Below are positions 3,745 to 64,000 of a DNA stretch of 64,000 nucleotides, piece by piece. The notes beneath the pieces were generated by a model. The model did no database searches. It was not told the DNA's origin and saw nothing but the letters and a program-made list of their open reading frames with translations. Position numbers and translations under genes: made by a program. Where the stretch lies: positions 18,972 through 82,971 of IMG/VR virus record IMGVR_UViG_3300046004_000818. One strand, 5' to 3'. Numbering within the stretch: the stretch's first letter is position 1; each line of letters starts with the position of its first letter. This stretch comes from a virus.

Positions 3745-3793
3745 TCTAGGTAACTAGCAACACTATCTCCCGGTTGGTTGGTGGTGTGATTAG

Positions 3794-3823
3794 CCCGGTG
3801 GACGAAAGTTCACCGGGTTTTTC
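3794..3823 (+). terminator. intrinsic terminator after tail tube gene
   Basis: CCCGGTGGAC-GAAA-GTTCACCGGG followed by TTTTT. Confidence 0.85.
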
Positions 3824-3872
3824 TATTTTCTGATGTAGAATCTTGGTTCCACTAACCAACTAGGATAAACCT

Positions 3873-21047: not shown

Positions 21048-21531
21048 ATCTGCTTACGCAGTAGTCATAGCCATGCTAATGGCTACTAGCTGTAGCCTGC
21101 ACTGGGATAACCAAGGGTTGGTGGTAGATATAGCTAAAGAGAAAGTAGTGGTGGCAGACTTGAAAGCTGCTATCAAAACTGCTGACGCTAAGGCTGCTGC
21201 AGAGTCTGCCACCCTGACCAAGAAAGTACTAGAGGCCCAAAATGCTGCAAAGAAACGTGAAGCTATCCTGCTTGCTGATGCTAAGTCTGCCAACACTGCT
21301 CTTGATGGGTTGCGCTTGTCCATCGCCACCGCCAAGTCCTCCTACAATATCGCTAACGTACCCACCTATGCCAGTACTGAGCTTACAGATACCAGCCTCA
21401 AGCTACTCGACCAATGCTCAGAAAGATACACAGTCTTGGCAGCAACAACTGATATCTACGCCAGCTATATCCAAGAAGTAACACAGGCGTGGCCTGTGTT
21501 ACCTATGGTTAAAGCTGTATCACCTGAGTAG
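21022..21531 (+). CDS. i-spanin (Rz-like)
   Basis: N-terminal TM segment plus Ala/Lys coiled coil; contains an out-of-frame lipoprotein ORF. Confidence 0.8.
   Translation: MNPLALIPKSAYAVVIAMLMATSCSLHWDNQGLVVDIAKEKVVVADLKAAIKTADAKAAAESATLTKKVLEAQNAAKKREAILLADAKSANTALDGLRLSIATAKSSYNIANVPTYASTELTDTSLKLLDQCSERYTVLAATTDIYASYIQEVTQAWPVLPMVKAVSPE
21242..21481 (+). CDS. o-spanin (Rz1-like lipoprotein), embedded in Rz
   Basis: signal peptide and lipobox LLMGC followed by a Pro-rich segment; +1 frame inside Rz. Confidence 0.8.
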   Translation: MLQRNVKLSCLLMLSLPTLLLMGCACPSPPPSPPTISLTYPPMPVLSLQIPASSYSTNAQKDTQSWQQQLISTPAISKK

Positions 21532-23557
21532 CAAACGCATCTGCTAGGTTGCTGTGGGTTACAACAACCACTTGATCGTAACCTGTAGCAGCTAGCAACC
21601 CCAACATAGCAGTCTCCCGTTCTTCATCCATACCTGCTGCTGGTTCATCCAGCAGCAGGTAGTCAATGGATGGCAGGAACGTCTTGCTTAAAGCCATGCG
21701 TATTGCAAGGCCCAAGGCATCTAGGGTCGATCCAGACAATCCACCTACAGGTTTGCCGCCTACAGCAAAAGAGTTGGAAGACCTTGTAACGATGCTAGGC
21801 TCTCCCCTGATCTGACTAAAGTAGGTAGAGACAGATGCAAGCACGATAGCCCAGAGTCTACCTGCTACTATTGGCCTAGCTTCACGTAGCTTCTTGATAA
21901 GAGCATTGTTTTTCTGCATCTCTTTTAGGGATTCTTCCAACTTCGCCTTAGACTCCATACTTGCTAGATAGTACCCAAGCTCAGTGTCATGCTTCTGTTG
22001 AGCCTGTTCAAGAGCATTGGCCGCATCCTTGTAGGCACCTAGGGCGGTGTTCACCTCTTGCTGCTTGAGCTTAATGGCTAACCGGGTAGCTTCCTTCTGC
22101 GCTAGCAAGCCTTGTGCCAAAATCTTTGCAGGAGTGTCAACCACCAGACCTTTGGTCTCAGTTAACAGCTTTCCCTGCCTATCTGCCAGTTCAGCATACA
22201 CACCCTTGGCCTTGTCATACTCACGCTGTAGCCGTTCACCCTCACGAATCTCAGCCACATAATCAGGCCAAACCTCAACCTGCTTGGGGACTTCGCCCAC
22301 CCAAGTCAACATCCTTGGGTACCTCTGGTCACCACGTTTCGTGAACTTCTCTGTAGCCCTATGCACAGCTTCTAATTGTGTATTTAGTTTTTGTAAATTT
22401 GTAAGAAATACTCTACGAGCTTTCTTTACCTCTAGGTCAACTGTGATTGAAGCTACCTGATCTTCAGCCTCCTTGATCTTGATAGCATTGGCGGCGTTCT
22501 TTGTGACCACCTCTGGTACATCGCTCAGGTCTTTACCGCACAGACCACAAGCTGTCTCAGTGATGATCAAAGCCTTTGCAGTAGCAGCAGCTAGCTTGTA
22601 ATGGACTATGGCATCAGTCATAAAGCCGATAGCAGCCTCGTTAGCTTTCCACTCCTTGTCAAAGTCATCTACTTGAGTAGTCACTGAGGTTGACTCCCAG
22701 AAGACCTTAAAGGCTTTCTCTTTGATAGTATGCTCCCGCATTGCTTCCAAGCCCCGCTTGGCACCCTCTATATCTACGGTAGGTGGTGTAGGTTCCACCA
22801 ATCTGTCCATAAGCTGATCCATCTCTATGGTGATCTGCTCCCAACGCTGCTCGGCTTTCACCACATCGGCAATGATAGCTCTCTGTGCTTGTTCATCAAT
22901 GGTGTCGTTTTCTTCCAGTGTTTCCAACTCTGTCTTAGCTAGCTGAAGTGCTGCTTTGGTGAAAGCAACTGTTGGCTCTAGGTCTTCTGTATCCAGCACA
23001 GGTTTCTTCAGATCATACAGCGGTGTAAGTGTATCAGTGATTTGCTTGGTGTTGCCGCTAGGTAGTTGATCCTGAATCTTTGATATGAGCATATCAAGCA
23101 GGTCGATGTTAGCCAGCTTCTCAATCAGCGGTACAGCCTCACCAGTTTCCAAGGCTCCACGTAGTCCACCTTGAGAGGCCACCATCAGCTTTGTAGCTGC
23201 GTCTGCATTGACACCGAACAGACGTTCAACATACTTGGTTACTTCTGCTTGTCCATTAGCAGTCTCCGTGCCGTTGGTGATCACTGCACCTGACTTGGAA
23301 CGCACTATCGTATAGGAGACTTGCTCGAATGTGAAAGTCAGTTCTACCTTGAGAGAACCCTCTGGCTTCTCGTAGGTAACGGTTTCTGCCAAGGTCATAG
23401 GTAACGCTCTAGCACCGAACATGGCGTACACAACTGCATGATACAAAGTGCTCTTTCCGGCCTCGTTCGCACCCTTAAGCGCAACTAACCCATCTTGAAA
23501 TTGCACAGTCAGGTCTTCGTGCTTCTTAAAGTTCTTGAGTGTGAGTTTAGTAATCAT
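21509..23557 (-). CDS. SbcC/Rad50-like SMC ATPase
   Basis: Walker A GANEAGKS, coiled coils with CGLC zinc hook, LSG signature, LLLDEP Walker B, VVTH. Confidence 0.93.
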   Translation of the reverse strand: MITKLTLKNFKKHEDLTVQFQDGLVALKGANEAGKSTLYHAVVYAMFGARALPMTLAETVTYEKPEGSLKVELTFTFEQVSYTIVRSKSGAVITNGTETANGQAEVTKYVERLFGVNADAATKLMVASQGGLRGALETGEAVPLIEKLANIDLLDMLISKIQDQLPSGNTKQITDTLTPLYDLKKPVLDTEDLEPTVAFTKAALQLAKTELETLEENDTIDEQAQRAIIADVVKAEQRWEQITIEMDQLMDRLVEPTPPTVDIEGAKRGLEAMREHTIKEKAFKVFWESTSVTTQVDDFDKEWKANEAAIGFMTDAIVHYKLAAATAKALIITETACGLCGKDLSDVPEVVTKNAANAIKIKEAEDQVASITVDLEVKKARRVFLTNLQKLNTQLEAVHRATEKFTKRGDQRYPRMLTWVGEVPKQVEVWPDYVAEIREGERLQREYDKAKGVYAELADRQGKLLTETKGLVVDTPAKILAQGLLAQKEATRLAIKLKQQEVNTALGAYKDAANALEQAQQKHDTELGYYLASMESKAKLEESLKEMQKNNALIKKLREARPIVAGRLWAIVLASVSTYFSQIRGEPSIVTRSSNSFAVGGKPVGGLSGSTLDALGLAIRMALSKTFLPSIDYLLLDEPAAGMDEERETAMLGLLAATGYDQVVVVTHSNLADAFATQVIQL

Positions 23558-23749: not shown

Positions 23750-24760
23750 TTACTCCAAGTTGTGCAAAATTGCAATCTCAGCGGGGTCCAGAACCTCGCC
23801 CAAAGCGGCCCAAACATCAAATGCGCGTACTGATTCAAGTGAGTCGCTGAAGCCTTCCAGACCCTCGTTTGACGCGATCTGGACAGCGTTTGTCACGACC
23901 AAAGCGGGGCTGATCGAACGGAACTTAGCGACTGCGCTAACCACCTGTGCAGCTTGCTCTGCCGTAGCATTGCCAACCATACGAACAAACTTATGGTTGG
24001 TTACTACTGGGTCTGTCCATAGCTGCTCAGTGTACTCACCGCTTTTGTCCATCACTATGTAGTGACCAACCACACCTTCTTCGTCAATACTGGTTCCATA
24101 TTTATAGGAACAACCCTGCCAATCAGATACCGATGTGGCAATCTGATTACCCGGAAGCCGTATCTTGCCTACATGCTTGTGCTGATGCTCATGCCCACAG
24201 ATGATATGCTTAGCCTTGCTAGCTTCTACCTGTTCCTTGGTTATGTTCAAGGACTGATCCGATTGTGCAGCAAACTTGTTGTCATAGTTGACATGCAAGA
24301 ATAGGTAGTCACATTCAGGCACACCTTCCAAAGCTGCATCAAAGGCTTCCTGATTTGGAAGGTGAGGGATCACATAGCCGTAAGGCGTATCAGTAGGTTC
24401 CTTGATAAGGACTACACGACCAGCATAGCTGCTACGCAAATAGTGTAACATAGTTGCTACTAGGTCAAGGCTTGAGGCCACTCCGCTAGTCTTGCTAAGG
24501 TCATGGTTACCTGCCACTAGGTACATATTGCCTGTGGTTCTGTCCAACCAGCTAAGCAGTAGCCTGATAGTCTCTATCGCATCAGAGATATTGACCTCAA
24601 ACTTATCGAACAGATCACCCAAGATCATCAGGTCACCTTGATGCGGCAGCAATGCACCGAACTGTGTAAGCACATAGTTCTTCAGAATCCCCTTGGTCAG
24701 TACAGTGGTACCTGCACTACGTTCCACACCAATGTGGGTATCATTAAGAATGGTTAACAT
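23750..24760 (-). CDS. SbcD/Mre11-like metallophosphoesterase nuclease
   Basis: DTHIG, GDLFD, GNHD and GHEH motifs; adjacent to SbcC. Confidence 0.92.
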   Translation of the reverse strand: MLTILNDTHIGVERSAGTTVLTKGILKNYVLTQFGALLPHQGDLMILGDLFDKFEVNISDAIETIRLLLSWLDRTTGNMYLVAGNHDLSKTSGVASSLDLVATMLHYLRSSYAGRVVLIKEPTDTPYGYVIPHLPNQEAFDAALEGVPECDYLFLHVNYDNKFAAQSDQSLNITKEQVEASKAKHIICGHEHQHKHVGKIRLPGNQIATSVSDWQGCSYKYGTSIDEEGVVGHYIVMDKSGEYTEQLWTDPVVTNHKFVRMVGNATAEQAAQVVSAVAKFRSISPALVVTNAVQIASNEGLEGFSDSLESVRAFDVWAALGEVLDPAEIAILHNLE

Positions 24761-26122: not shown

Positions 26123-26181
26123 GTTGATTGCCGTTGATTGTCATTGATTGCAGCTATAGAACTATAGAACTATAGCTGCAA
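26123..26181. repeat. three TTGATTG repeats (10-bp period) plus inverted repeat TTGCAGCTATAG...CTATAGCTGCAA
   Basis: read directly in the intergenic gap downstream of thyX. Confidence 0.85.
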
Positions 26182-26186
26182 CTTCA

Positions 26187-26864
26187 TTATAGCCAGTGCC
26201 TTTCAAATGCTGCAACTGCTACCGGCACAATCGGCCTGATAAGCTCTAGCATTCCTTCGGCGTACACCCGAATCTCATACTGAGCGTGGGGGTGTATCCG
26301 CAGTTTGATGAACTTCATCAGGTTCAAGAGGTTGACTGTGCCGAAGCAATGGCTGTAGGTGTTGACAGGTAGCACACCTCTAGCCAGTTCACGAGGACAG
26401 CCCATAGCAATCATGCGATTGTAGAGGTTGAAAGCCGAGGCACACTGATCGACAATGGCAAGCTGCAGGTCCATAGCTAGTGGGTGCATCGTGTCAGTAC
26501 GCATCTGCTTGTTTGTCTCTGACTGTGTCGTGATCTGAGAAAGCTCAGGTACATAGTACTCTTCTGGAAGAGGAGTGTAACGTGCACTGACTTCGTTATA
26601 TGCCCATGTCCTATGACGGTGCCACTGGCGGAAAACGAAGATCGGAGCCTTGATATCGAATGTAAAGGTCACCGACTCAAATGGGCTAGTGTGGTGATTT
26701 TTGACCAGATAGTCTATCAGTTTGGTATCTTTACCTTCGTCATCTCCAGACCTCCATTCAGCGTCATAGCTGACTCGTGCATTACGCACGATAGAGAGGT
26801 CATTGCCCATCGACTCTACAAGCCGAAGATGACCGTGGTTAAGTAGTTTGATTGTTTGTGTCAT
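26187..26864 (-). CDS. thyX: FAD-dependent thymidylate synthase
   Basis: HTSPFE, RQWHRHRTWAYNEVSARY (RHRx7SxR), ARGVLP and HAQYEIR. Confidence 0.97.
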   Translation of the reverse strand: MTQTIKLLNHGHLRLVESMGNDLSIVRNARVSYDAEWRSGDDEGKDTKLIDYLVKNHHTSPFESVTFTFDIKAPIFVFRQWHRHRTWAYNEVSARYTPLPEEYYVPELSQITTQSETNKQMRTDTMHPLAMDLQLAIVDQCASAFNLYNRMIAMGCPRELARGVLPVNTYSHCFGTVNLLNLMKFIKLRIHPHAQYEIRVYAEGMLELIRPIVPVAVAAFERHWL

Positions 26865-36654: not shown

Positions 36655-36670
36655 CTGCTTCTTTCTTATT

Positions 36671-36830
36671 AGCGTAGCTTACTGTTAGAAGAACCCCATT
36701 TTCGGTGAAAGTTACCGGACAACCCAAGAACCTGACGGTTTGAGATTACGGCTCGAAAATGGGGTTCATCTAACAGCAAGCAAACGCTTGCGGGGTTGTC
36801 GGAATGCGCCTTTCACAGCGGGTGTAATCT
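36671..36830 (-). ncRNA. candidate structured leader RNA upstream of primase (C4/CI-like architecture)
   Basis: 28-bp inverted repeat with 2 mismatches (36677-36704 / 36754-36781) and three 7-8 nt loop segments complementary to boxes at 36793-36830. Confidence 0.55.
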
Positions 36831-36834
36831 TACA

Positions 36835-43000: not shown

Positions 43001-43799
43001 AATGGTTAAAAGATTGTAGGCCATAGTGCCTAACATACACACTAGCATGACTATACTAATTAGACCTAAAACAAAAAGCCCTAGGATGCCTAGGTATATG
43101 TCAAACACTTCTTTAAGCGGGTTGTCGCTTCCAGTATAGGCAATCAGTAGCAATGCCGTGACAAGGCTAAAGATTAGGAGCCCTATTAACATGGCTGGCC
43201 TCCAAGGTGTTTTGCAGTTGTGCTTCTTTGCGGGTAGCTTTATCAGCATCTAACTGAATGTCAACAAAAGGGTTCTTAACCCCGAAGATTTCCTTGACCT
43301 TAGCCTCAGAGGGGATAAAAGGTTTCAAGGCGGCGAGGATAGTTGGATGGATGTGATCGTTGCTCATAGCTTTTTTCCTACAATAAAACTTAGAACAATA
43401 AACAGTACAGCGGCGACCATGCAAGCTGTACCCATATAAGACCTAAAGCGTGGTGTCAGATTGTGGGATAGGTACACAGCACCCAGGATGAGAAAGAGGT
43501 CTACGCTACTCATGGTGTTCCTTTCTGCACAAGCGTGCCGCAGCACTTCTGCTGGTCAATCTCGGTGTCTACCTGAAGGACCATTTGTTGTTTCATTTCC
43601 GCACCTTCTCTTTCGGTGGAGTCTTGAACCACCAGACGTAGCAGACATTGTTAACCTGCTCTTTGTTAGCCTGGATAAAATCCGTTACATCAAATGGGAC
43701 TGGTTTGGGAGCGTGTTCAAGGCCTAGTCTGTAGCATAGCCAACCAGTTGAAGCTATTGCATACATAGCTAAGGCTAGCCAAGTGAAAGCATATCGCAT
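40088..43799 (-). CDS. cluster of ~13 small hypothetical/membrane proteins
   Basis: tiled minus-strand ORFs with GGAG RBSs; includes a DUF551-like WQPMATCP protein (41401), a RQHFASLAMQ protein (41920) and a Gly/Ser/Asp-tailed protein (42528-42986). Confidence 0.6.
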
Positions 43800-43821
43800 C
43801 TCTATTCCTTTCAAGAGTGAC

Positions 43822-43849
43822 AAAAAGGCCCTCCGAAGAGGGCCTTTTT
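43822..43849. terminator. bidirectional intrinsic terminator
   Basis: AAAAAGGCCCTC-CGAA-GAGGGCCTTTTT. Confidence 0.9.
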
Positions 43850-43868
43850 AGACTAGCTACGCAATAGC

Positions 43869-49948: not shown

Positions 49949-52039
49949 TTAAGCGTAGGTGCTGGTATTGTCGCTAAGGGCAGAGAGAACAGTAGCGGCA
50001 GGAAGTATGGCGCTGTACATACTTCCCGTACCCACTATCGTAGTTGCAGTCCTTAGCCACTCGGCTGTGCTAGTCCCTCCAGTTGGCAGGGACACGGTAG
50101 CACCTGTGACAGGCTCTGGCTCGACACAGGTATTCATGGACACATCATGCTGTCCATTGTAGTCAATGGCTTCTGCTTCTGCCAAGAAGGTGCTGTAGTA
50201 CCTGTTCAGTTGCTTCAACGTCTTCATAGCTGTGCTATCGCTCAAACCGCTAGACTCAAGGTAGCTGATAGACAGTGCATACATCTCGGGCCATGCTGGA
50301 AGTCCCCTCCAGTTGTACTCATACAACGCTTTACCTTTGTAAATTATGTAGTCAGATACATAACCCTTGAGGGTACTTATCACGATCTCATACACACTGT
50401 AGCCCTCCCTGACTCTGTCCTCAATGTGTGCAACCAAGTACGGATAGGAGTTGTCATCTCCCGGATGGAAACTCTCTGATCTCAGATGCCAGAAGTAGGT
50501 ACCAAAGAGTCGAGTACGCTCAACATTGCGCTTGAACTCCCATGTACCGTCGTAGAGGTGGCGAATATCGTGCACCCCTTCCACAACCTTTCGGCCTGTG
50601 GAAGTCTTCTCCACCTTGGTAAGTGTGTCAGCATAAAGTACCACACCCTTGCTGATAGAGTGAATTTTCGTCCAGCCCTTGTCAACCTCTTGCTGGTGCA
50701 CCCACCCAAGCTGACCGGCAACCACAGCCTGTACAGCATCTGCACCTTTTATCAGGTACTCGCCAGACTGCTTATAACCATCTGAAGCTTCAACCTCCCA
50801 ACTCATGGCTGGAAGTATCCAATCCTGCTCGTCTGGGTAGTGTCGTGCATCCAGCTTCCTGAAACCTGCCCACTTGCGTTGGTCCTCTGTGTCTGGGAAC
50901 GTGCGTCCACCGTGGTAGAACGTAACAATGTCAGCCGTTGTCCTATACAGGTTGGGATAGCCGCCCTGCCCATTCCGAATGTGTATGTCGATACCTGCAT
51001 CGTACACCTCTTCACAGACCATGACCTTCTTGGTATAGTCATCCTTGAGGTAGAACGGATGCAACTTGTCAACCAAGCAGTTGACCATCTTGCCTGACAC
51101 AGCGCAAGCCTTGTGGAATTGACTTGTAGTTACATCAATAAAATTGTAATAACCACCAGTAGAGGTGCAGACACGTATAGCTTCTGACCCACAGGCTGAA
51201 CGTATGCCTTCTATCCTGTCTGGATAGACGCTCATCAACTTACCGTCAAGTAGTACCACGCTGCTGCGTGAGGGGCTGCCCACAGTACCTTCACCGTCAA
51301 GGTAGGGCATCACATAGCCCTTACTGTAGCCCAGCTTGATCTTCTTGAACTCGGCCCCATGCCAACAACCCGGCTTAAAGTCTGCACGTCTGAGCCGCTT
51401 CTCCAGCTTCTGGTCACCGTAGATGCGAATGTAACGCTTATCAGTCTCAGAGGGCATGTAGACCATACTGCGTCCGGTAATGGCCCCAGATGCACTGCGT
51501 ACGATAGCTATGCCTATGTTAGGCATGTCATAGACCTCTGTAGGATGGTGGCCTTCTACGTTGAAGGCGTGAGTGTCTTTGGTCATGCATGAACCTACAC
51601 CCGAGCTTAGCTCGTTGTAGACCTTAGCAATGTCTGCACCGTACAACAGTTCCACCTCACCTGTGACTTCACCTAGGTGGTCGGCAACTAGCTGGCCTAC
51701 CTCTTCGTCCTTGTAGTGAGGATAGTACTTGGCAATGAATTTACCAAGAGTAGTCTTCAACTGCCTGTCGGCTTCACCTGAAGCCTTGTCAGGTGTGTAA
51801 GCAATGTAGTTGGGGTCTTCCTTGCTAACGTGCAAGGCAAACTGCGGCAGCTTCTTGTTGAAGTTAGTGATTACTTCTGAAGGTGGTGGATAGATGCCCT
51901 TCTCTATACGCAACCACTCACGGCGCAACCACCAAGGGATGTAGTAGTCTGTCCCGGCAGCGTTGAGAATCTTCTGATTAACCCTACCGAATGGGGCTAA
52001 CTGTGCCTCACTGGTGATCTTGTCTTCAAGACTTGCCAT
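49949..52039 (-). CDS. large hypothetical phage protein (SCM / RIYG / MPYLD motifs)
   Basis: ~696 aa from ATG 52039 with AAGGAG RBS; function not recognised. Confidence 0.7.
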   Translation of the reverse strand: MASLEDKITSEAQLAPFGRVNQKILNAAGTDYYIPWWLRREWLRIEKGIYPPPSEVITNFNKKLPQFALHVSKEDPNYIAYTPDKASGEADRQLKTTLGKFIAKYYPHYKDEEVGQLVADHLGEVTGEVELLYGADIAKVYNELSSGVGSCMTKDTHAFNVEGHHPTEVYDMPNIGIAIVRSASGAITGRSMVYMPSETDKRYIRIYGDQKLEKRLRRADFKPGCWHGAEFKKIKLGYSKGYVMPYLDGEGTVGSPSRSSVVLLDGKLMSVYPDRIEGIRSACGSEAIRVCTSTGGYYNFIDVTTSQFHKACAVSGKMVNCLVDKLHPFYLKDDYTKKVMVCEEVYDAGIDIHIRNGQGGYPNLYRTTADIVTFYHGGRTFPDTEDQRKWAGFRKLDARHYPDEQDWILPAMSWEVEASDGYKQSGEYLIKGADAVQAVVAGQLGWVHQQEVDKGWTKIHSISKGVVLYADTLTKVEKTSTGRKVVEGVHDIRHLYDGTWEFKRNVERTRLFGTYFWHLRSESFHPGDDNSYPYLVAHIEDRVREGYSVYEIVISTLKGYVSDYIIYKGKALYEYNWRGLPAWPEMYALSISYLESSGLSDSTAMKTLKQLNRYYSTFLAEAEAIDYNGQHDVSMNTCVEPEPVTGATVSLPTGGTSTAEWLRTATTIVGTGSMYSAILPAATVLSALSDNTSTYA

Positions 52040-52539
52040 GTTCTTTCTCCTTGTAAAAAGCGATAGCTTCAATAGCTATCTGTTCAAGGTCGTGCTTAGC
52101 GTGCTGCTCTTCCACAACCTTTGCGGTAACACGTTTTGGTTGTGTCCACTCAAGCCTCTTGCTGAAGTCCTCATACATAGCGTGAGTCTCCCAGATACCG
52201 TCGATCTTACACACGGTAGCCTGTGTGACTAGCATACCGTTGTAGTTCTTAGCTGTACGCAGATTGAGGCGACGTTTGTCACCTAACTCTTTTGAACTGG
52301 TAGTTTGCCAGTTGCCTCGGCTGTCTTTTGAGGTAAACATGTTATACCTCCAGCCCTTTAAGGACCAGCGTGCGCCCTATGACTACCAACCACAGCCCAT
52401 AGAAGACAGTGGCATAGCTAAGATGCGCCTCTACTGGCGCGATCTGGTTGTAAGGAAACCAGATCAATACAGCAATCGCTGCAGTAAGTGCTACAAATCT
52501 GCACATTGCTTCAAGTAGCTTTAATAGTGTGTTATACAT
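52026..52539 (-). CDS. two small hypothetical proteins (52026-52340; 52342-52539, membrane)
   Basis: GGAGG/AGGAG RBSs; tiled ORFs. Confidence 0.6.
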
Positions 52540-52560
52540 GGTTCACTCCTTTGGAAAATT

Positions 52561-52615
52561 CGGACATGGGAATTCCCATGTCCGGTTTAAGCCCGATACG
52601 GGAATCCCGTATCGG
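52561..52615. repeat. two adjacent related palindromes
   Basis: CGGACATGGGAATTCCCATGTCCG (perfect, 24 bp) and CCGATACGGGA-A-TCCCGTATCGG (23 bp). Confidence 0.9.
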
Positions 52616-52625
52616 ATGAAGGCTC

Positions 52626-53183
52626 TTACTTCTTAGCAGCCTTCTTTGCCACTGTCTTCGTAGCAGGTTTTACAACCTGTTTAGCAATGGCCTTAAGAGG
52701 CTTTGTAGGTGCCTTTGCAGCCACTTTAGCTTTGGCTGGTGCCTTGGCCTTGACCGACGCTTTTGGCGCGGCCTTGGCTGTTTTTGTAGCCACCTTTGTG
52801 GCTTTTGCGGGGGCTTTCACCACCTTAGTAGCCGCTTTCGTGGCCTTTACAGGCGCCTTCTTCGGGGCAGCTTTCTTGGCAGCAGGCTTTGCCTTTGGCG
52901 CAGCTTTGGCCTTCGGAGCAGCCACAGTCTCGACAGGTGTAGCCACAACAGGTGCCGGGCGACCGTCATCCAAGGGCAACTTCGTACGCTTGTCACGGAT
53001 GACGCAGTACAGAGGGTTGTCAGGGTTCTCGATGAAGAACACCAACTTCTTGCCGCGAGTCGATGGGTTCGCTGCATGGATAGCGGCGAAGATACGGCGC
53101 TTTTCAGATTTCCGAGCATAGCGATCCATGCCACGGGTTTTCAAGAGGGCTTCGGCTTGTTGGGTTGTGATAGTCATTTGCAT
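52626..53183 (-). CDS. histone H1-like Lys/Ala/Pro-rich DNA-binding protein
   Basis: ~75-aa globular N-terminus plus ~100-aa KAAPK/AKA tail. Confidence 0.8.
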   Translation of the reverse strand: MQMTITTQQAEALLKTRGMDRYARKSEKRRIFAAIHAANPSTRGKKLVFFIENPDNPLYCVIRDKRTKLPLDDGRPAPVVATPVETVAAPKAKAAPKAKPAAKKAAPKKAPVKATKAATKVVKAPAKATKVATKTAKAAPKASVKAKAPAKAKVAAKAPTKPLKAIAKQVVKPATKTVAKKAAKK

Positions 53184-53386
53184 GATACGTTTTCCTATTA
53201 AAAAGGATGGAGTCAAATTACCTAGAGGCGTCTAGGCAGCGTTCGCTAGAGTCAACTAGCAGAAGGGTTGAGGCACTAGCCCCGCACTGGTAGCGGGGTT
53301 TCTAGTATGCGTTCAGGGCTCTAAGTAACTCAGACTCAAGAGCCTCTACAGTGTCAGGTTGTAATTTCATGGTTACTCCTTAATTA

Positions 53387-53550
53387 GGTTGCGGCCCACC
53401 GTCACTAGGTGCCTAGCCTTATCGAAGCACAGCTTGTAAGAAGGGCCTTGGTAGTCGTGGGCCGCAAACATAAGGTTGCAGTCTGCAATACTAGGTGCCC
53501 TAGAGTAAACAATTCTCATATGAGGCCTTGGCAAATGCAGACTGCAAACC
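53387..53550. ncRNA. two tandem covarying stem-loop units (candidate small RNA array)
   Basis: each unit is closed by a perfect 11-12 bp stem of different sequence and contains CTAGGTGCC and GGCCTTGG. Confidence 0.55.
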
Positions 53551-53551
53551 G

Positions 53552-53875
53552 TTAGGTGTTGACCACTACGACAGTCTTACCTGCCAGCGGGTTAGACATA
53601 GCGGCGTAGGCTTCAAGTGCAGCCTTGCACTCGTCGGGAGTGAGAGGGCGAATCTCAATATCGCCTTTGTGGTTGGGATCATAACTATTGTCCCACAGAT
53701 GTGGGTGATCTGTTGTCTGAGCCTTGAGGTAAGGCATCACAGAATCCATCACCCTTGGAATCATGTGAGTCATAATGCCACCCTCACCGATCAACCATTC
53801 AAGGTCTTCGTAAACGTGGCCGATATTGGTGTGAAGGCGACCTGTTGTAAGGTTGCGTAGACGTTGGATACCCAT
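53552..53875 (-). CDS. hypothetical protein
   Basis: 107 aa, AGGAG RBS, LTTGRLH motif. Confidence 0.65.
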   Translation of the reverse strand: MGIQRLRNLTTGRLHTNIGHVYEDLEWLIGEGGIMTHMIPRVMDSVMPYLKAQTTDHPHLWDNSYDPNHKGDIEIRPLTPDECKAALEAYAAMSNPLAGKTVVVVNT

Positions 53876-54358
53876 GTTGTTACTCCTATAAAAAGTGGTT
53901 ATGCTTTCAGCAAGTGGCCCCTATCAGCTAGAGGCCACTAACCGAAAGTTATAATTTCTTGGCGGGAAGGCAGTACCCCCCCGAAGCACTGCCACCCATA
54001 GGGCATATGCCCCAGTCAATCTGGCGCACCATACGGCGCCTGATGTCGGCTTCTACACTACTTACCTCTTGTGCTTCGGGACACGCAAAGCTGAGTAACA
54101 AGCCGACCATTATGTAGAGTGTTGGCATAGTTAACTGTGAGTGTAGCCGTCAGGCTCAACACCCAAGATCATGCCGCAATAGGGGACCATAGCGCACCCA
54201 GGTCCGGGCTGCACAAGGCGGCGAAATGTTCGATAAGAGATTTTGCGCTCAGTACGATTCCAGATACGGTGTACTGCTTCGCGCTGAAGGCGTGTGAGGA
54301 CTAACATAAAAATGCTCCTATAAAAATACAGCATGACGCTGTGGTTGAAATAACTAAC

Positions 54359-54437
54359 TGGTGGGACTAATAGGATTTGAACCTATGACCAATAAATTAT
54401 GAGTTTACTGCTCTAAACCTGCCTGAGCTATAGTCCC
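54359..54437 (-). tRNA. tRNA with CAT anticodon, most likely tRNA-Ile2 (lysidine-type)
   Basis: GGGACTA-TA-GCTC...GAGC-A-GTAAA-CTCATAA-TTTAT-TGGTC-ATAGG-TTCAAAT-CCTAT-TAGTCCC-ACCA; full cloverleaf with encoded CCA; variable loop TGGTC resembles Ile2, though Met is not excluded. Confidence 0.92.
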
Positions 54438-54471
54438 ACTAGGTAGTGATTTCCAGTGCTTCATCACCGTA

Positions 54472-57400
54472 TTACGGGTTATACCCAAATCTGCAGCTAT
54501 AGAGTAGGATGTACCACCTGCGGCTCTTAGCCGCAAAATAGCTTCTACGTCTGCTTTCACTGTGCCTGTAAGAACCGGGCTCAAACCTTGAGTCGAGCAT
54601 ACCGTGTATCCAGTTACGGAACATGGCACACTCTTCTTCTGTGATCTCTCGTCTCTCAAGTGCCCCATAAGCTAGGCCACAGAAGTATCTGCTAGGGCTC
54701 TCTCTGCCTGTGTGCAAAATCTGCAGGCACACTTGTGCCCGGCGAACCTGCTCGCTAATCTGAGACATTGGTCTCTCCTTTAAAAATAATTTGCCAACCA
54801 CCCGCTTAAGACTCTCGCAAACTCTGATGCTGATACCCGTCCTGATCTAGATACATTAGTATCATATTTGATACGGCTGTATAGATACTCGTCCTCGATC
54901 CTGATACACGTTTGTAGTACGGTGTGTAACTGCTGCGATGGTTGGCGAAACTGGTTAGGACTTGTCATATGCTGCAAGGACTAGGCCCACAGCAGCAGCT
55001 ATACCAAGTGCTGGAAGCCTTCGGCGCGGTCTCGGTGTGCGGTTAAGGCCTTGTGCCTCTCGCTTAATCTGCGCCTCTTGGTAGAGTAGCTCCCTCTCGA
55101 TTTGGCGCTTTCGGAAGACCTCAGCCTTTATAGCTGCTTCCTGTTCGTTGCGTTCAAGGGCTTCAGCTATGCGCTGCTCCTTTGTGCCTCTTTGCTTAGC
55201 TTGTCCCATGTGTACCTCCTATGGGTGGTTACCGTTGAACCAAGGTCTGTACTGACCTTGTAGAAACGTGCCTAATACCTCGTACTGTTCGGCAGGGTAT
55301 GGAGGGTAGTCTTTACCACACACTGACATAACCTCTGCGATAGCAAGGGTACCTGCATCCTTGAAGGATGTAGCTGATATGTTCTTGGCTATGTACTGCA
55401 AGTCCTGTAGGCTGTTGTAGCCCTCCACCTGACTTATCAGATTGACAGGACGCATGACGATAACATCAAACTTAGGCATTTTCGAGTATCTCCTTTAGTT
55501 CTTTCAAATGAGACTCCACCGAAGCTATCTTGCCTTTAAGCTGAGCAAGTCGTGTCTCACGCTCATAACTTTTCTCTTTACGCTTGGTGGTAATTATCCA
55601 CGTTACATGAAGATCATACACACCCTTAGGTGCAGTCTTGAGTATCTCATCACAAATCTCTTCAGCAGATTCAGAACTGCGCCGATAACACGCTTCATCA
55701 GTGATGATATGGAAGGGTTTCTTAACCTTCTTAGGCTTTACAGGCTCAGGGTTGTAACCGTGTGGGTTACGGGTGTAACCATCAAACGCTCCCATTTCCA
55801 TCCTCCCACAGTACACGCACATTGTTGCACCAAGGGCTTTCCTCATAGCGCATACGATACTCATGTGGATACACGATAGCGTGCTGCTCCTGCCCCTCAG
55901 GTGTTGTGTAGATGACAACCTTAGCGGCTTTTGGATCGTCATAGTAGTGACCATCGGCGGCGATAATCTCTTTGGCTGTCTGTGCTGTTATTGATCCCAT
56001 GTTAGCTCTCCTTAGTAAACCAGTAAGTCATACGGTGTGCAGTGGTCATCCCGCAACTCCAAGTAGTTGAGCTGGTGGCAGATAAACAACCGATGACGGT
56101 TATCCATATAGGCATCACAAGGTGTGAGCCATTGTGATTGAGTCACACTCTCAGCAACTGAGACTATGTGATTGCGTGCAGACTTTGAGTCCTCACACCC
56201 AAGGTAGTAGAAGAAAAGGTCTTCGATACCCATGTTAACGCTCCATCAAGGTTAGCTTGTAGAACCTGCATACGCTTATATCTACATCAGCATAGGCGAT
56301 TGTGTAGTCCTCGCCAGTGTTCTCGTTGGAGCAGGTAAAGTCTTCTCCAAGGCAATACTGCATACGTAACCATATGTCATCACCGCCTACATAGAAGCAA
56401 GCATCTTTAGCTAGACGCTTTACCGCCTCTTCCGAAGTCTCAAGCTTTGGTGGAGTGAGTGGAAACTTGTGGTGATCACCTGCACCCTGATAGTGGGTAA
56501 AGCCCTGATTGACTGCCCATACAAGGGCGGCTTGTTTGACGGAGGGTACTTCAGAGGCATGGCACTGGTACTCTTTCAGGCTCTTGCCTCTGTAGCACAG
56601 AGACACATAGTTACCCTTCGCCTGACCCCATAACGTACCCCATGCGAGAATGACGGTCTTCATACCCGATTCTCGATCTCTGTAATGCACTCTTGTGCAG
56701 CAGCTTTCCACGCTGCATGGGTAATAACCCCGTCCGTCCAAGGTTCGGACTCGACTATCTGCTTTGAATACTGCGAGATAGCCTCAATGATGAATGCCTG
56801 TTTGAGGGCACCCACTTGACTGTACTCCATCATGTGAGTAACTAGTTGCACATTGGTTTGTGGTTTCTTAGCCATTGAAAAATACTCCTTTAAAAACTAA
56901 CACCAGCCTTCTTCAGCGTAAAACTTACGCCGAAACAGAATGAACCAAGTGAAGGGGACTGGTGTGAACCCTTGCTTCTGCGCTCTCTCCAGATGATCCC
57001 AATAATCCTGTCTGAGTCTCATTACCAAACTCCTGTTTAAGCTTCTCATATAGCTTGCGCCTTTCTTTTAGGTCAAAGGCCTCACGCTTCATACGATATG
57101 CCATTTCTAGGCCCGTTTCAAGGCGGGGATAGCTGACTGTGCCTTCTATATCGGTGTCCTCAAACCGATGAACGACACGAAACGTAACCATAGGTATAAC
57201 CTTAGGTGGGCACTCTGCCTGAATACCTCGTAGCTGGTCTATAAAATCAGCTAGAGGTGTATCTCCGAAGGTGGGAGGGTCGAAGTATATTTCTTCGACT
57301 GTCATTTGTGGTGTCATTAAAAGTCCTCCGGTACAATAAAGCCAGCACCACGTACAAGGGCTATAGCTTCCTTTGGTAGGTCGTACAGCCCATCGTAGTC

Positions 57401-58940: not shown

Positions 58941-61900
58941 CTAGTAGTTTCGGCCTACATTTAGACGCACTCGGAACCCTCTTGGATCGACTTTGCTAAC
59001 GCTGTAGCTGTATACGCGACAGCCACAGCAGTCGTGGTCGTGTGTGCAGTGAGAAGAGAATTTTTCTCTCAGTGCGTCATAGACTGCGCTGATAGGTGTG
59101 TTTCTTGGTGTGCTGACCTTGAAAGTCATCTTGCACACCTCATCAAAGCCATACAGCGTAGTTACTTTTGGGTTCAAAAATTTCAGCATAATTTTCTCCT
59201 TGAAGATGCGCTTAAGCAAGAGGTTTTAAGGCCTCTTGCTTAAGGGTTATACTTCCCAAGGCTTGATCTGCATAGACCGCCAAGGTGTACGTGGGGCCTT
59301 GTATCCGCTATCGTTATTGACGATGTTGTTCAGGATTTTGGTGGCCTTGATTAACTGGCGCTCGTAGTGCTTCTTGAGAGCAGGTTGGCCCTCTTTGTTG
59401 AAAAGCTTTTGCAGGTCTTTGACCTGTGCCTGTGCCTCTTGGCGGCTGATGCAGATAGTCATTTGCAAAGCTCCTTGCGACGGGCTGCAATAGCTGCTTG
59501 CATGGATGCCTTTGGGTCAATGGCGCGAGGTAGTGTAGGCTTTACCATGCCACTCTTGATAAGGTTGTTGAGGACTGCACGATCATTCTTGTTTACGTTT
59601 GCCATTTTTTAGCTCCTATTAAACTTTCTGTGTACCGATTTCGTCGCAAATGTCTTTTGCCTCTTTGAGGCGTAGCCCATGCTGTTCTTTGAGGAACTTG
59701 ATTGCCGTGACCTTGAGAGGCACTGGCTGGCGGTAGAGGCTGTTAATGATGCTCCACTCTGCCTCTGTAATCTGCAAATACGCTTTTGCGCTCCAGCTTA
59801 CGCTGTAGGTGTATGGATGGTCAGGCATAGCTACCATTGCCAGCACTACCTCTTTGGCCTCCCAAGGTGTCAGGTCGTGCTGGCTCAGGATCAAATCTCT
59901 TGCCAGTTCTGGGTTGTCCTCGCAGAGGGCTTTGGCAATGTTGTAGGTCAGGCTTGACAGCCTAATTTCTCCGAGACTCTTCTCATATATGAACGTACGC
60001 ATGGATAACCTTTCAAAGCAAACAGCCCACGGGATTGTGGGCTGTTAGGTTTGAAACCTAGGTGTTTAGATCTAGGTCTTTATTTTTAGAAAATCGCTGG
60101 AAATTTTCAGGAGTTAACCTGTCCCCAATTATTTTCTGAACCAGAACCGCACGAAGTCGGTCCAGATGTTGCGCTTCTCTTCGTATGGGTAGCCGTAGTC
60201 GTTGTACTTGACCATGTTAGAAGTCCTCGCTTGTAGCCAATAACCCGATAACAATGGACAGAACTATGCCTATACAAGCCATAGTGATTTGTGGGACTGT
60301 AGTAGCCAGCACAAGAAGCTGGATAAGACACACGCCAAGGCCCATTAAAGCGCCTAGCATTGCGAAGAACCTTGCTACTGCTTTCATTTCATGCCTGCCA
60401 TTCTCAGCCACTTGGCTGCTGCATCATTTCCGCATATACCGTCATAAACCATGTTCTGATCTATGCCTGCCTGTGTAATGGTCAGACCATCTACCTCAAG
60501 CTCGTCATCCACATCATCAAAGTCCACACCTTCACAGGTGTTGATGTTGTGCAGGTGCTGAAGCTCTGCGAGGATTGCTGTGGGCAGCAACTCTGCTTGA
60601 TAAGCCAAAGGTTCTGCTGTGTTCTTGAACGACAGCTTACGCTCATGGGGAATGTGAACTACTGGCACAATATACCTTTCAAAAATGCCTGTTGGAAGCA
60701 GTCAGGCTCTGCCTATGTGTGATGTGATGGTCGGCGCGTTGGGTTTCCGGTGTAACCTTAGCCTTGATTTCCGGTGCGATCTTGATCTTACATATAACCG
60801 TCCACTTTGTTATATGCGCTATAGGAGGTTGTTAGTCCTATAGGACAGGCTCTGAGGCCTGTGCTATAAGTTCTAGTAGTGCCCGTCACGCATGACTAGA
60901 GGGTCAAGGCTGTACACGAAACCGTTAGGGCTTGAACTACCTACAGAACTGCCTGCAGGAAGGAAGCAAGTGGCGTCTATGCTTGCGTGATTCTCTTGGA
61001 GAAAATCAAATCTAAGACTATTCTTCACATTGACTGTGCCTGTATGTGAACCGGGCACAGTGATTAACGTCTTGCCATTTGTGAGTAGTTTCATGCTGCA
61101 CCTCGCGCCATGTAGGTGACGACAGCTTTTGCGTCCATTGCAAAGGCGCAGAATTGCGCCCATGTGAGAGGCTTGAAGCCTTCGATGCTGGCATTGACAC
61201 AATGCCTTGCGAATAAGTATTCCACGATATACCTTTCAAAATCTAGGGGTCTGCCTAGTCAGTCTGTGTGAGTACACAAAGGACAGGCTCTAGGCCTGTG
61301 CTTTAGATACTACAAGGAAGGGTCTGCAAGCCTTTCCAAGCGTCCCCACAAAGGACAGGCTCTAGGCCTGTGCTTTAGATACTACAAGGAAGGGCCTGCA
61401 AGCCTCTCCAAGCGTCCCCACTTGAATACTACGTGCTGCACCTCTCGCCCTTCCTTGAGGGCCTCAGAGACAGCTTTAAGCCCTTGCATATAAGCTGCAT
61501 TCAGGGCCTGTTCAGTCAGGCTCAGGCTTGGAATCTGACGCTCCAAGAACGTGCACTGATAAGCCATACTAGACTGCACGTATCTCTACGATACCGTTCC
61601 GCAAGTCTCTGTCTGTGACCACATATTTGTGATCTTTGAGCAGCGTTCTTACTGCTTGCTCATTCTCAGGCAGCATACTCAGATGAACCCGGACATTTCT
61701 GACAAAGTTAATATCAGTGCACAGAGTTGTTAAGAGAATATTTAGAGTGTGCATATGTTCACCTTAACAGATATACACGTTCAACTTACCCGGATTCTCC
61801 CACTCGCAGAATAAGCCCTTGCTTGTCAAGGTATCGTCGATCTTGGGGCTTACACCAAAGATTCCCCAAGATTGGCAGTAGTACTCTGCCCATGTCTCTT

Positions 61901-63784: not shown

Positions 63785-64000
<216 letters not shown>

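Follow-up and report, generated by a model that had tools for sequence, protein, structure and literature searches.

What is the role of two long, imperfect hairpins that lie side by side in a single gap of a phage early operon? The source phage is an uncultured lake-water virus without a close relative; its genome is complete (82,971 bp), and tape measure and tail-fibre J matches assign it to the siphoviruses, not related to T7. In the window, i.e. the whole 64,000-nt stretch of DNA analysed here, every credible gene between 21509 and 64000 is encoded on the minus strand, including both genes that flank the hairpins. The gap that holds both units comprises 185 nt and separates the gene of a DUF7736 protein from a 22-codon ORF within a predicted minus-strand operon (Table 1). 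The preliminary description of this locus had proposed that the hairpins represent a new phage small-RNA family.

The neighbouring genes provide few functional hints. The DUF7736 protein has 318 homologues with a top non-self identity of 63%, and its predicted model (pLDDT 81) finds no match in the PDB at an E-value of 0.001 or better. The Lys/Ala-rich protein of 185 amino acids, encoded after the 22-codon ORF, shares 47% identity with homologues in two IMG/VR contigs and belongs to no family in Pfam or PHROG. Among the 42 early-arm proteins, Pfam matches are restricted to the DUF7736 protein and one weak L7/L12 match. The sequence GTTACTCCT, which comprises the Shine-Dalgarno sequence and the spacer of the 22-codon ORF, recurs ahead of the DUF7736 gene, and a tRNA-Met gene predicted by ARAGORN (54359-54437) is located 0.9 kb from the units.

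Table 1. The two units, their parts and the features around them (window coordinates; sequences and order of units in the mRNA sense where stated).
Feature	Position	Strand	Basis or remark
Unit 2, 72-nt imperfect hairpin, first in mRNA sense	53476..53547	-	starts 4 nt past the DUF7736 stop codon
Unit 1, 79-nt imperfect hairpin, second in mRNA sense	53389..53467	-	ends 7 nt short of the next ORF's Shine-Dalgarno sequence
Linker between units, 8 nt, CCUUAUGU in mRNA sense	53468..53475	-	no pairing predicted in the fold of either strand
Invariant core block A, ACTAGGTGCC	unit 1 53404..53413; unit 2 53490-53499		10/10 identical
Invariant core block B, GGCCTTGG	unit 1 53444..53451; unit 2 53524-53531		8/8 identical
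Variable apex	unit 1 53414..53443 (30 nt); unit 2 53500-53523 (24 nt)		unalignable
DUF7736 protein gene, 107 aa, upstream of units	53552..53875	-	Pfam PF24875, E 1.7e-16
22-codon ORF downstream of units	53302..53370	-	Shine-Dalgarno AAGGAG 53376-53381; read from sequence
185-aa protein gene, next after 22-codon ORF	52626..53183	-	N-terminal domain conserved; tail Lys/Ala-rich
Twin-hairpin module, next gap downstream	52561..52615	-	perfect inverted repeats 52593-52615 and 52561-52584; gap sequence and fold
Single 20-pair hairpin, gap upstream of DUF7736 gene	53904..53948	-	inverted-repeat pair and fold

Re-reading of the sequence bears out the coordinates, the letters and the perfect stems of the preliminary description. 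Unit 1 is closed by 11 bp with 100% complementarity (53389-53399 with 53457-53467) and unit 2 by a perfect 12-bp stem (53476-53487 with 53536-53547). RNAalifold predicts 19 pairs common to the two units. In this alignment, 4 of the 11 outer-stem pairs carry changes at both partners and no pair carries a one-sided change, confirming that the stems differ while they continue to pair. When the 3' partners are shifted by 1-3 columns, the share of paired cells falls from 100% to 21-49%. The chance that 8 changes over 22 stem positions form 4 complementary pairs is ~1e-5 by a simple combinatorial estimate; a shuffle control was as good in 36 of 500 cases, which is a weak test with only two sequences.

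Conservation within the units is highly unequal. Each stem arm is identical at 7 of 11 positions and the cores are identical at 18 of 18, while the alignment score of the apices is matched by 1138 of 2000 shuffles and hence at random level. The shared motifs around an unrelated middle of 24-30 nt were therefore described correctly. As far as two sequences can tell, the units are clearly under selection, with closing stems maintained via compensatory change, cores kept, and an apex that has diverged to randomness.

Both units appear to stem from one ancestor. The repeat unit extends to the flanks AGGTTGC and GCAAAC, and a T(T/A)AGGT hexamer is present before unit 1 (53384), between the units (53471) and after unit 2 (53552), as is expected of a tandem duplication. 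Judged by their sequences, units 1 and 2 are genuine paralogues. In the window, exact copies of CTAGGTGCC are found at 53405 and 53491 and at a single other site, 22034, on the minus strand; GGCCTTGG has 9 copies elsewhere in the window, which by our reading are located in Ala-Lys-type coding repeats or other coding DNA. The three hexamers that bracket and separate the units can also be taken as the footprint of slippage duplication. Together with the lack of homologues in the searches described below, this would suit a functionless relic, in which an intergenic hairpin was duplicated in tandem. Such a relic is highly improbable, because all four stem changes are compensatory (4/4) and because 31 invariant block and flank positions beside a random apex, with stems 36% diverged, have a probability of ~8e-7 under neutral divergence.

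Known families and standard elements do not account for the units. At the gathering score, Rfam 15 detects only the tRNA-Met in the whole window, and in 53150-53950 at E-values up to 10 its matches (53202-53306, 53701-53785 and 53869-53915) lie outside the units. ARAGORN likewise predicts only the tRNA-Met in the window, and the permissive Rfam search gives no tRNA match at the units. The original statement that they resemble neither tRNAs nor ribozymes thus holds. The same is true for CRISPR repeats, as the units are ~85 nt long, share exact stretches of at most 10 nt and have no Rfam match; arrays of the CRISPR or type III antitoxin kind, which consist of near-identical direct repeats of ~25-45 nt, can be dismissed on the same grounds of length and shared sequence. 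Palindromic repeats of the REP/BIME and MITE type are also intergenic, hairpin-forming and duplicated, but the units occur in only two adjacent copies within one gap. Furthermore, the two copies have arms that disagree at 4 of 11 positions and yet stay complementary, which is the opposite of the transposase-recognised ends of MITE-type elements. A mobile repeat of the MITE or REP type is accordingly rejected.

A coding role is rejected as well. The 53-codon TTG and 48-codon GTG frames that cross the units look random and the blocks fall in different frames; the block spacing between the units is 86 and 80 nt, neither of which is a multiple of 3, and stop codons interrupt all six frames except the 53-codon TTG frame. 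A consensus scan of 52000-55500 on both strands, directed at sigma-70-type promoter signals and at terminators, detects none beside the units. An intrinsic terminator is ruled out, since neither strand contains a terminator-like site and no T-run follows either stem. The absence of promoter-like and terminator-like sites on both strands also indicates that the units are not self-contained genes.

The search for relatives was based on a covariance model built from the two units (model R1). In the phage's own 82,971-bp genome, with filters off, model R1 finds the units on both strands and 12 other matches, all with E-values of 0.15 or worse. The best of these is a TTGC...GCAA hairpin at 26142-26187. 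No credible match is present in 3 records that share neighbouring genes or in 5 of the 7 records found via the DNA polymerase (L116 and L119 were left out), and 60 DUF7736 loci yield only two matches at E 6.4, both inside a tRNA-Cys gene. The large collections (IMG/VR, JGI metagenomes and GTDB) were searched by exact patterns rather than by model R1. An exact-core scan of IMG/VR returns 38 stretches, none of which has a closing stem by reading of the folds. Longer patterns return 3 stretches from the JGI metagenomes, two of them apparently coding and one without a closing stem, and the GTDB genomes contain 4 stretches, every one in a frame that is open across 150 nt on either side. We regard the hits of these pattern scans as chance matches. 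Blastn against 50,697 cultured-phage records gives no match.

The polymerase relatives lack the DUF7736 gene (5 of 5) and mostly the Lys/Ala-rich protein (4 of 5), so that no syntenic comparison is possible. The 110 nt downstream of DUF7736 genes fold with z-scores below -2 in 10 of the 60 loci, but these regions are heterogeneous and unlike the units. Among sequencing runs listed as containing the phage there is no RNA run, and the best DNA run (share 0.98, labelled lake water metagenome) may be its source sample. When contigs of four other sequencing runs are compared with 52600-54500, 53240-53943 is uncovered and zero variants are seen, which bears neither way on expression or variation.

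These results divide the preliminary description. Paralogy, selected stems and cores, and the absence of a known family stand. The new small-RNA family is not supported, as there are only two copies in a complete genome and no homologues with covariation: the covariance-model search set beforehand as a check retrieves none from related phage records or DUF7736 loci. A self-contained small-RNA gene family likewise lacks support, for want of covarying homologues in these searches and of an own promoter or terminator. The proposed array of variable guides is not supported either, since no apex target in the phage exceeds chance. The longest exact apex matches in the phage genome are 10-11 nt, compared with a shuffle mean of 10.5, the apex duplex energies against 70 translation start regions are within the shuffle range, and no pairing between the apices is above shuffles.

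In appearance, the units come closest to the hairpins that commonly punctuate the early messages of phages. They may constitute a cis-acting module between cistrons that serves the processing or stability of the polycistronic early mRNA from the minus strand, a reading to which we tentatively give a little less than an even chance. It is suggested by the common strand of the flanking genes and of the whole arm (21509-64000), by units that fill their gap exactly, from stop codon to Shine-Dalgarno sequence, and by their lack of own signals although the genome uses canonical U-tract terminators elsewhere, e.g. in the gaps 43728-43868 and 3745-3872. Selection on the stems (4/11 double changes) and on the cores of a non-coding sequence points in the same direction.

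Additional support comes from neighbouring gaps. In the next gap downstream (52561-52615), the layout recurs as a hairpin, an 8-nt linker GCUUAAAC, a second hairpin and then a Shine-Dalgarno sequence. The hairpin upstream of the DUF7736 gene (53904-53948) folds to -30.8 kcal/mol on the minus strand versus -18.5 kcal/mol on the plus strand, with wobble pairs that favour the mRNA strand. The genome as a whole is rich in hairpins, with 20 perfect inverted repeats of at least 11 bp observed and 1.2 expected.

As an mRNA module, the two long imperfect hairpins and their 8-nt single-stranded linker would keep the DUF7736 message insulated from that of the following genes. The operon would be transcribed across the units, and the transcript would then be cut by a host endoribonuclease, which would act in the A/U-containing linker if of the RNase E type and in the two-tier helices if of the RNase III type; the linker at 53468-53475 is the putative endonuclease entry site. 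After cleavage, unit 2 would stay on the upstream message as a protective 3' hairpin, and unit 1 would shield the 5' end of the downstream message as a hairpin immediately before its Shine-Dalgarno sequence, stabilising both. The module would have originated from one hairpin that was duplicated in tandem; selection would have kept the closing stems by compensatory changes and left the apex free to drift. The two short blocks of the second tier, kept by selection, are probably a recognition or cleavage region.

Two well-known principles underlie this proposal. Hairpins at mRNA ends shield transcripts from exonucleases and from 5'-end-dependent decay by RNase E, and RNase E cuts A/U-rich single-stranded linkers beside stem-loops. 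The order of hairpin, short A/U-containing linker and hairpin, found twice in adjacent gaps, corresponds to this arrangement. Protective hairpins, however, need no conserved internal sequence and leave the 18 invariant nucleotides of the units unexplained; plain stability hairpins would not need them.

The closest known counterparts are the RNase III sites in the early gaps of T7, which we take to be the hairpins named R0.3, R0.5, R1, R1.1 and R1.3 and which lack annotation in the RefSeq T7 record. Folded here, they have a lower stem of 8 bp and an upper stem of 10 bp with a 5+5 internal loop in between, and with compensatory change in 9 of 18 pairs. Like these sites, the units are paralogous copies located in a gap of a polycistronic early operon (predicted in their case) whose genes are on the same strand as the sites, and they combine covarying stems with blocks that are conserved where the upper stem starts. 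Their two tiers comprise a lower stem of 11-12 bp, a loop of up to 5+5 and a second tier of 8 pairs. This two-tier shape, which the units show on the plus strand, favours the mRNA module, as does the role of internal-loop sites: according to three reports, internal loops restrict RNase III to one cut and leave a protective 3' hairpin (PMC3867540, PMC1540722, PMC6993053). In contrast to the T7 sites, the units measure 72-79 nt instead of ~50 nt, carry a variable apex of 24-30 nt where T7 has a small loop, are present as two copies in one gap instead of one per gap, and pair their second tier only opposite to the gene strand. A covariance model (R2) of all five T7 hairpins from the early gaps gives 4 matches at E 1-9.3 in the window with filters off, and none at the units on either strand at E-values up to 10; cleavage of the units by RNase III is putative.

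The strand of the second tier is the main caveat to the mRNA module: pairing between the invariant blocks is confined to the strand opposite to the genes, the plus strand. There, RNAalifold recovers the motif helix of the preliminary description with 8 pairs, including two G-U pairs, and one bulged U; the duplex of blocks A and B has -7.9 kcal/mol on this strand, and 3 pairs with -4.0 kcal/mol on the minus (mRNA) strand. Thus, the sequence of 11-12 bp, internal loop and 8 pairs is a property of the plus strand, and the minimum-energy folds of units 1 and 2 on the minus strand have no common second tier. The T7 model, which matches the units on neither strand, and the better fold of the plus-strand gap also speak against the mRNA module. 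The 185-nt gap folds to -75.1 kcal/mol (z -5.4 versus shuffles) on the plus strand and to -65.3 kcal/mol (z -3.1) on the minus strand; the corresponding values are -39.4 and -32.7 kcal/mol for unit 1 and -30.2 and -27.2 kcal/mol for unit 2. However, the strand differences of the other 26 gaps span -15.3 to +13.6 kcal/mol and so encompass the plus-strand advantage of 9.8 kcal/mol, and folding energy therefore gives no strand call.

The same data could indicate that the plus strand is the functional one, such that an antisense transcript contains two T7-like two-tier hairpins and acts on the sense mRNA or as an RNase III substrate. The strand-specific core helix speaks for this, as do the lower energy and stronger z-score of the plus strand. 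In our judgement, the blocks on this strand also bear a loose resemblance to the conserved AAGGU...GGCCUU base of the upper stem in T7 hairpins. Still, neither a promoter-like or terminator-like site near the units nor a credible gene nearby is found on this strand, and the T7 model has no plus-strand match there. The early arm is T-rich on the plus strand (AT skew -0.107), which alone favours G-U pairing, and the energy difference does not stand out from other gaps. A functional plus strand is very unlikely.

The invariant blocks lend themselves to another explanation, in which cleavage at the closing stems frees stable small RNAs from the early transcript, as tRNAs are freed from a precursor, with the blocks as a docking site for a phage or host protein and the apex as a variable module. 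This corresponds to the decoy or scaffold of the preliminary description. Identical cores (18/18) next to a random apex are better explained by a scaffold that a protein recognises than by a hairpin for stability alone. With 72 and 79 nt, the units have the size of tRNAs, and they are close to the tRNA-Met gene; tRNA genes occur within 2.5 kb of the DUF7736 gene in 6 of 60 IMG/VR loci, and in one locus (L001) a tRNA-Arg gene immediately follows the DUF7736 gene, at the place that the units occupy in the source phage. A precedent exists in T4, in which one precursor gives rise to eight tRNAs, an mRNA and the species I and II RNAs, the latter of unknown function (PMC2330249). The likeness to this T4 system consists of a tRNA-bearing stretch of small early genes and of release from a long precursor, which for the units is hypothetical; the species I and II RNAs have no sequence or structure relation to the units and are absent from their Rfam results.

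Against released small RNAs speak the lack of a homologue in the records and databases searched, the lack of tRNA or Rfam similarity at E-values up to 10, apices without targets in the phage, and the failure of a partner protein to emerge from Pfam and PHROG searches of the early-arm proteins or from the comparison of the DUF7736 model with the PDB. Small RNAs cut from the early transcript are therefore unlikely. The more specific proposal, that stable RNAs of ~75 nt are released from the early transcript or the plus strand, that their bulged G-U helix docks a protein and that the apex gives specificity, would define a new class of phage scaffold RNA, seen only here; it is quite unlikely.

Finally, the units could act as DNA, either as protein-binding palindromes or as single-strand hairpins that serve as operators, a recombination point or a replication signal. 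Template-switch correction of quasi-palindromes can keep arms perfect, and could do so here without selection on RNA. The excess of inverted repeats in the genome is compatible with a DNA element, and when folded as DNA both strands are about equal (-19.0 and -18.1 kcal/mol for unit 1, -15.0 and -14.3 kcal/mol for unit 2). CTAG is densest in the 500-nt bin 53000-53499, whose 9 copies are the highest number in the genome, and 5 of the 23 close CTAG pairs of the genome are found at 53222-53503; the Lys/Ala-rich protein of the neighbouring gene is histone-like. Genome-wide, however, close CTAG pairs are not enriched (23 observed, 29 expected), and no promoter that such an element might control was found. 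A protein that reads the arms would preserve their sequence, whereas 4 of 11 positions differ with complementarity kept, and the units are placed relative to a stop codon and a Shine-Dalgarno sequence, which are RNA landmarks. A role as DNA element is thus also rather improbable, on a par with the scaffold RNA.

If the units are an intercistronic mRNA module, they would represent a further case of a common but little-studied phage habit, in which duplicated, covarying hairpins punctuate early operons and set the cut sites and lifetimes of message pieces. Unusual in this case are the size of the units, their two invariant blocks and the pairing of these blocks only on the antisense strand. Should the units instead be released as RNAs with a protein partner, they would constitute a new class of phage RNA.

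The two hairpins (unit 1 and unit 2) align over ~85 nt and have the blocks AGGTTGC, ACTAGGTGCC, GGCCTTGG and GCAAAC in common; the stems and motifs listed in the preliminary description are all present in the sequence at their reported positions. RNAalifold, applied to both units, yields 19 consensus pairs. The closing stem of 11 pairs contains four two-sided and no one-sided changes, and the second helix of eight pairs is invariant. On the plus strand this helix includes a bulged U as well as two G-U pairs, which reproduces the core helix proposed in that description. In a partner-sliding control, the paired cells drop from 100% to 21–49%. Each stem arm is identical at 7/11 positions between the units, with all differences compensated, while the cores, i.e. 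the two invariant blocks of 10 and 8 nt, are identical at 18/18 positions. The apices are unrelated, as had been claimed, and 1138 of 2000 shuffles align as well. Neutral drift after duplication has a probability of ~8e-7 (a crude estimate) of producing this conservation pattern and cannot account for it; therefore, constraint acts on the stems and on both blocks. Judged from the sequence, the element is under selection, in agreement with the selection on structure suggested before. The hexamer T(T/A)AGGT flanks the units before, between and after and appears to mark a tandem duplication as their origin, but the neutral-drift estimate makes it highly improbable that the units are a functionless relic of a duplication.

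No Rfam family matches the units, either at the gathering score or in a permissive search, and tRNA was rejected for lack of similarity, consistent with the earlier failure to recognise a known RNA. The units are not terminators because no U-tract follows either stem; canonical terminators are present elsewhere in the genome. Coding sequence was rejected because the common blocks fall in different frames, and a dispersed repeat because R1, a covariance model built from both units, finds just this pair when run over the complete genome. Its best match apart from the units is a perfect 12-bp hairpin at 26148–26181 (15.6 bits, E 0.15), which lies 2 nt past a stop codon in mRNA sense and, like unit 2, has TTGCAG and CTGCAA as its opening and closing hexamers. 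Of the perfect inverted repeats of at least 9 bp, 56 in all, three start with TTGC.

Searches for relatives gave no credible match. An exact-core scan of IMG/VR returned 38 stretches, many of which repeat the same coding sequences; a closing stem is absent from all of them. A 23-base pattern found three stretches in JGI metagenome contigs, all unrelated, and a mirror pattern found four in GTDB (one genome per species), all within open frames. By blastn against 50,697 phage records, a tRNA is the sole match and none exists for the units. In records or loci of relatives, R1 matches 0 of 3, 0 of 5 and, credibly, 0 of 60. Contigs from other sequencing runs left the element uncovered. The relatives sharing the polymerase lack the genes neighbouring the units, so that they offer no syntenic gap for comparison. 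The new small-RNA family envisaged in the preliminary description therefore shrinks to a pair of neighbours within a single gap of a single genome.

The IMG/VR record of 82,971 bp, whose bases 18972–82971 form the window, carries direct terminal repeats and is rated complete. These repeats include the heptamer ACACCAG, reiterated over genome bases 1–135 at the left end, and its complement at the other end (window 63988–64000). The genome is of the siphovirus type, with a 2208-aa protein matching tape-measure families and a 1387-aa protein matching tail-fibre J, and encodes a family-A DNA polymerase, a primase, a helicase and SbcC/SbcD-like proteins. Structural genes occupy the plus strand up to ~21500 of the window, and from 21509 to 64000 all credible genes are on the minus strand. 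For 42 early proteins, Pfam gave no informative match. The phage is an orphan: the closest non-self homologue of the gene adjoining the units reaches 63% identity among 5.8 billion clusters, and large proteins of the closest phage records show 38–53% identity.

Features around the two units (window coordinates)
Feature	Position	Strand	Remarks
Twin perfect hairpins, arms 11 and 10 bp	52561–52615		behind the Lys/Ala-rich protein gene
185-aa protein gene, Lys/Ala-rich tail	53183 down to 52626	minus	
Gap, 118 nt, three small hairpins	53184–53301		between the 22-codon ORF and the 185-aa protein gene
22-codon ORF	53370 down to 53302	minus	AAGGAG ahead
Unit 1	53389–53467		
Unit 2	53476–53547		
DUF7736 gene	53875 down to 53552	minus	Pfam E 1.7e-16
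20-pair hairpin	53904–53948		between a 59-codon ORF and the DUF7736 gene

In mRNA sense, the DUF7736 gene is followed after 4 nt by unit 2, an 8-nt linker (CCUUAUGU) and unit 1, and then by 7 nt, AAGGAG and the 22-codon ORF. A Shine-Dalgarno-plus-spacer string is common to the leaders of the DUF7736 gene and the small ORF (repeat family D7). No solved structure related to the predicted DUF7736 model was found. The next downstream gap (52540–52625) has the same design: two perfect hairpins joined by an 8-nt linker (GCUUAAAC) and followed by a Shine-Dalgarno sequence. Its twin hairpins have a common GGGA(A/T)TCCC centre and different arms, repeating the unit layout at a smaller scale. The 20-pair hairpin, in the gap upstream of the DUF7736 gene, is far more stable on the mRNA strand than on the other (-30.8 versus -18.5 kcal/mol) and matches R1 weakly (12.5 bits, E 0.93). 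Other hairpins occur farther away. One with arms ACAGGC/GCCTGT and a CTAGA-type loop has three copies in two early gaps (60723–60872, 61203–61381), within a longer ~30-nt repeat. At 36655–36834, a very long hairpin is found in the gap that precedes the primase gene; part of it is a perfect 14-bp repeat whose arms are 49 nt apart (36691–36767), and the gap folds at -66 kcal/mol. At 54328–54342 on the minus strand, a tRNA-Met gene is immediately followed by a terminator-like hairpin and T-run, which overlaps the start of a 67-codon ORF.

The functional strand cannot be called from sequence: the context points to the mRNA strand and the core helix to the opposite one. Pairing between the invariant blocks is confined to the plus strand (8 pairs, -7.9 kcal/mol, versus 3 pairs, -4.0 kcal/mol, on the minus strand). 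The gap also folds better on the plus strand, by 9.8 kcal/mol, and on the minus strand the units lack a common second tier in their folds. A plus-strand RNA is nevertheless very unlikely. No promoter-like or terminator-like site and no plus-strand gene was found for it, the local T-richness of this strand favours G-U pairs, and in the other 26 gaps the two strands often differ as much (-15.3 to +13.6 kcal/mol). Folded as DNA, both strands of the units are alike. A role as DNA-level palindromes is quite unlikely. SbcC-like and SbcD-like proteins (21509–23557 and 23750–24760) occur in the same phage as the 20 perfect inverted repeats counted below.

Released scaffold RNAs have also been considered. 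In 6 of 60 IMG/VR loci (L060, L064, L080, L093, L095, L102), the distance from the DUF7736 gene to a tRNA gene is less than 2.5 kb. In L093 and L095 the gene is inside a cluster of six tRNAs and a tmRNA, and in L001, the same contig as L064, it is flanked by tRNA-Met and tRNA-Arg, the latter directly downstream. Released tRNA-like stable RNAs are thus conceivable, similar to the T4 species I and II RNAs (PMC2330249), but the units lack tRNA similarity, and released scaffold RNAs are an unlikely reading. Within the phage, no target complementary to the apices was found above chance, which leaves the variable-guide idea of the preliminary description without a target there. CTAG is densest in the genome near the units (nine copies in the 500-nt bin 53000–53499) and twofold enriched in early-arm gaps (p 3e-4); close CTAG pairs show no genome-wide enrichment, and no promoter was found near the units' CTAG-dense stretch. 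The 118-nt gap contains five CTAG, and two of its small hairpins have CTAG-based stems; a weak Rfam Trp_leader match at 53202–53306 (20.4 bits, E 0.18) looks spurious.

The five early gaps of T7 fold as two-tier hairpins, in which a 5+5 internal loop separates a lower stem of 8 bp from an upper stem of 10 bp; blocks at the upper-stem base are conserved, and 9/18 pairs covary. The units resemble them in shape and evolutionary pattern, and their plus-strand blocks recall, by eye, the T7 blocks AAGGU and GGCCUU. However, R2, a covariance model of the five T7 hairpins, fails to match the units on both strands. The units may thus function like T7-type RNase III sites but do not belong to that family. 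RNase III substrates span about two helical turns, and internal loops confine cutting to one strand, leaving a protective 3' hairpin, as described in PMC3867540, PMC1540722 and PMC6993053. The whole genome contains 20 perfect inverted repeats with arms of at least 11 bp and spacers of 3–80 nt, versus ~1.2 in Markov-1 simulations. Together with the hairpins in neighbouring gaps, this excess indicates that one or two stable hairpins in the early-operon gaps are a general habit of this phage, and that the units are its largest example. Their most likely function, proposed tentatively, would be that of a module acting in cis on the processing and stability of the early polycistronic mRNA.
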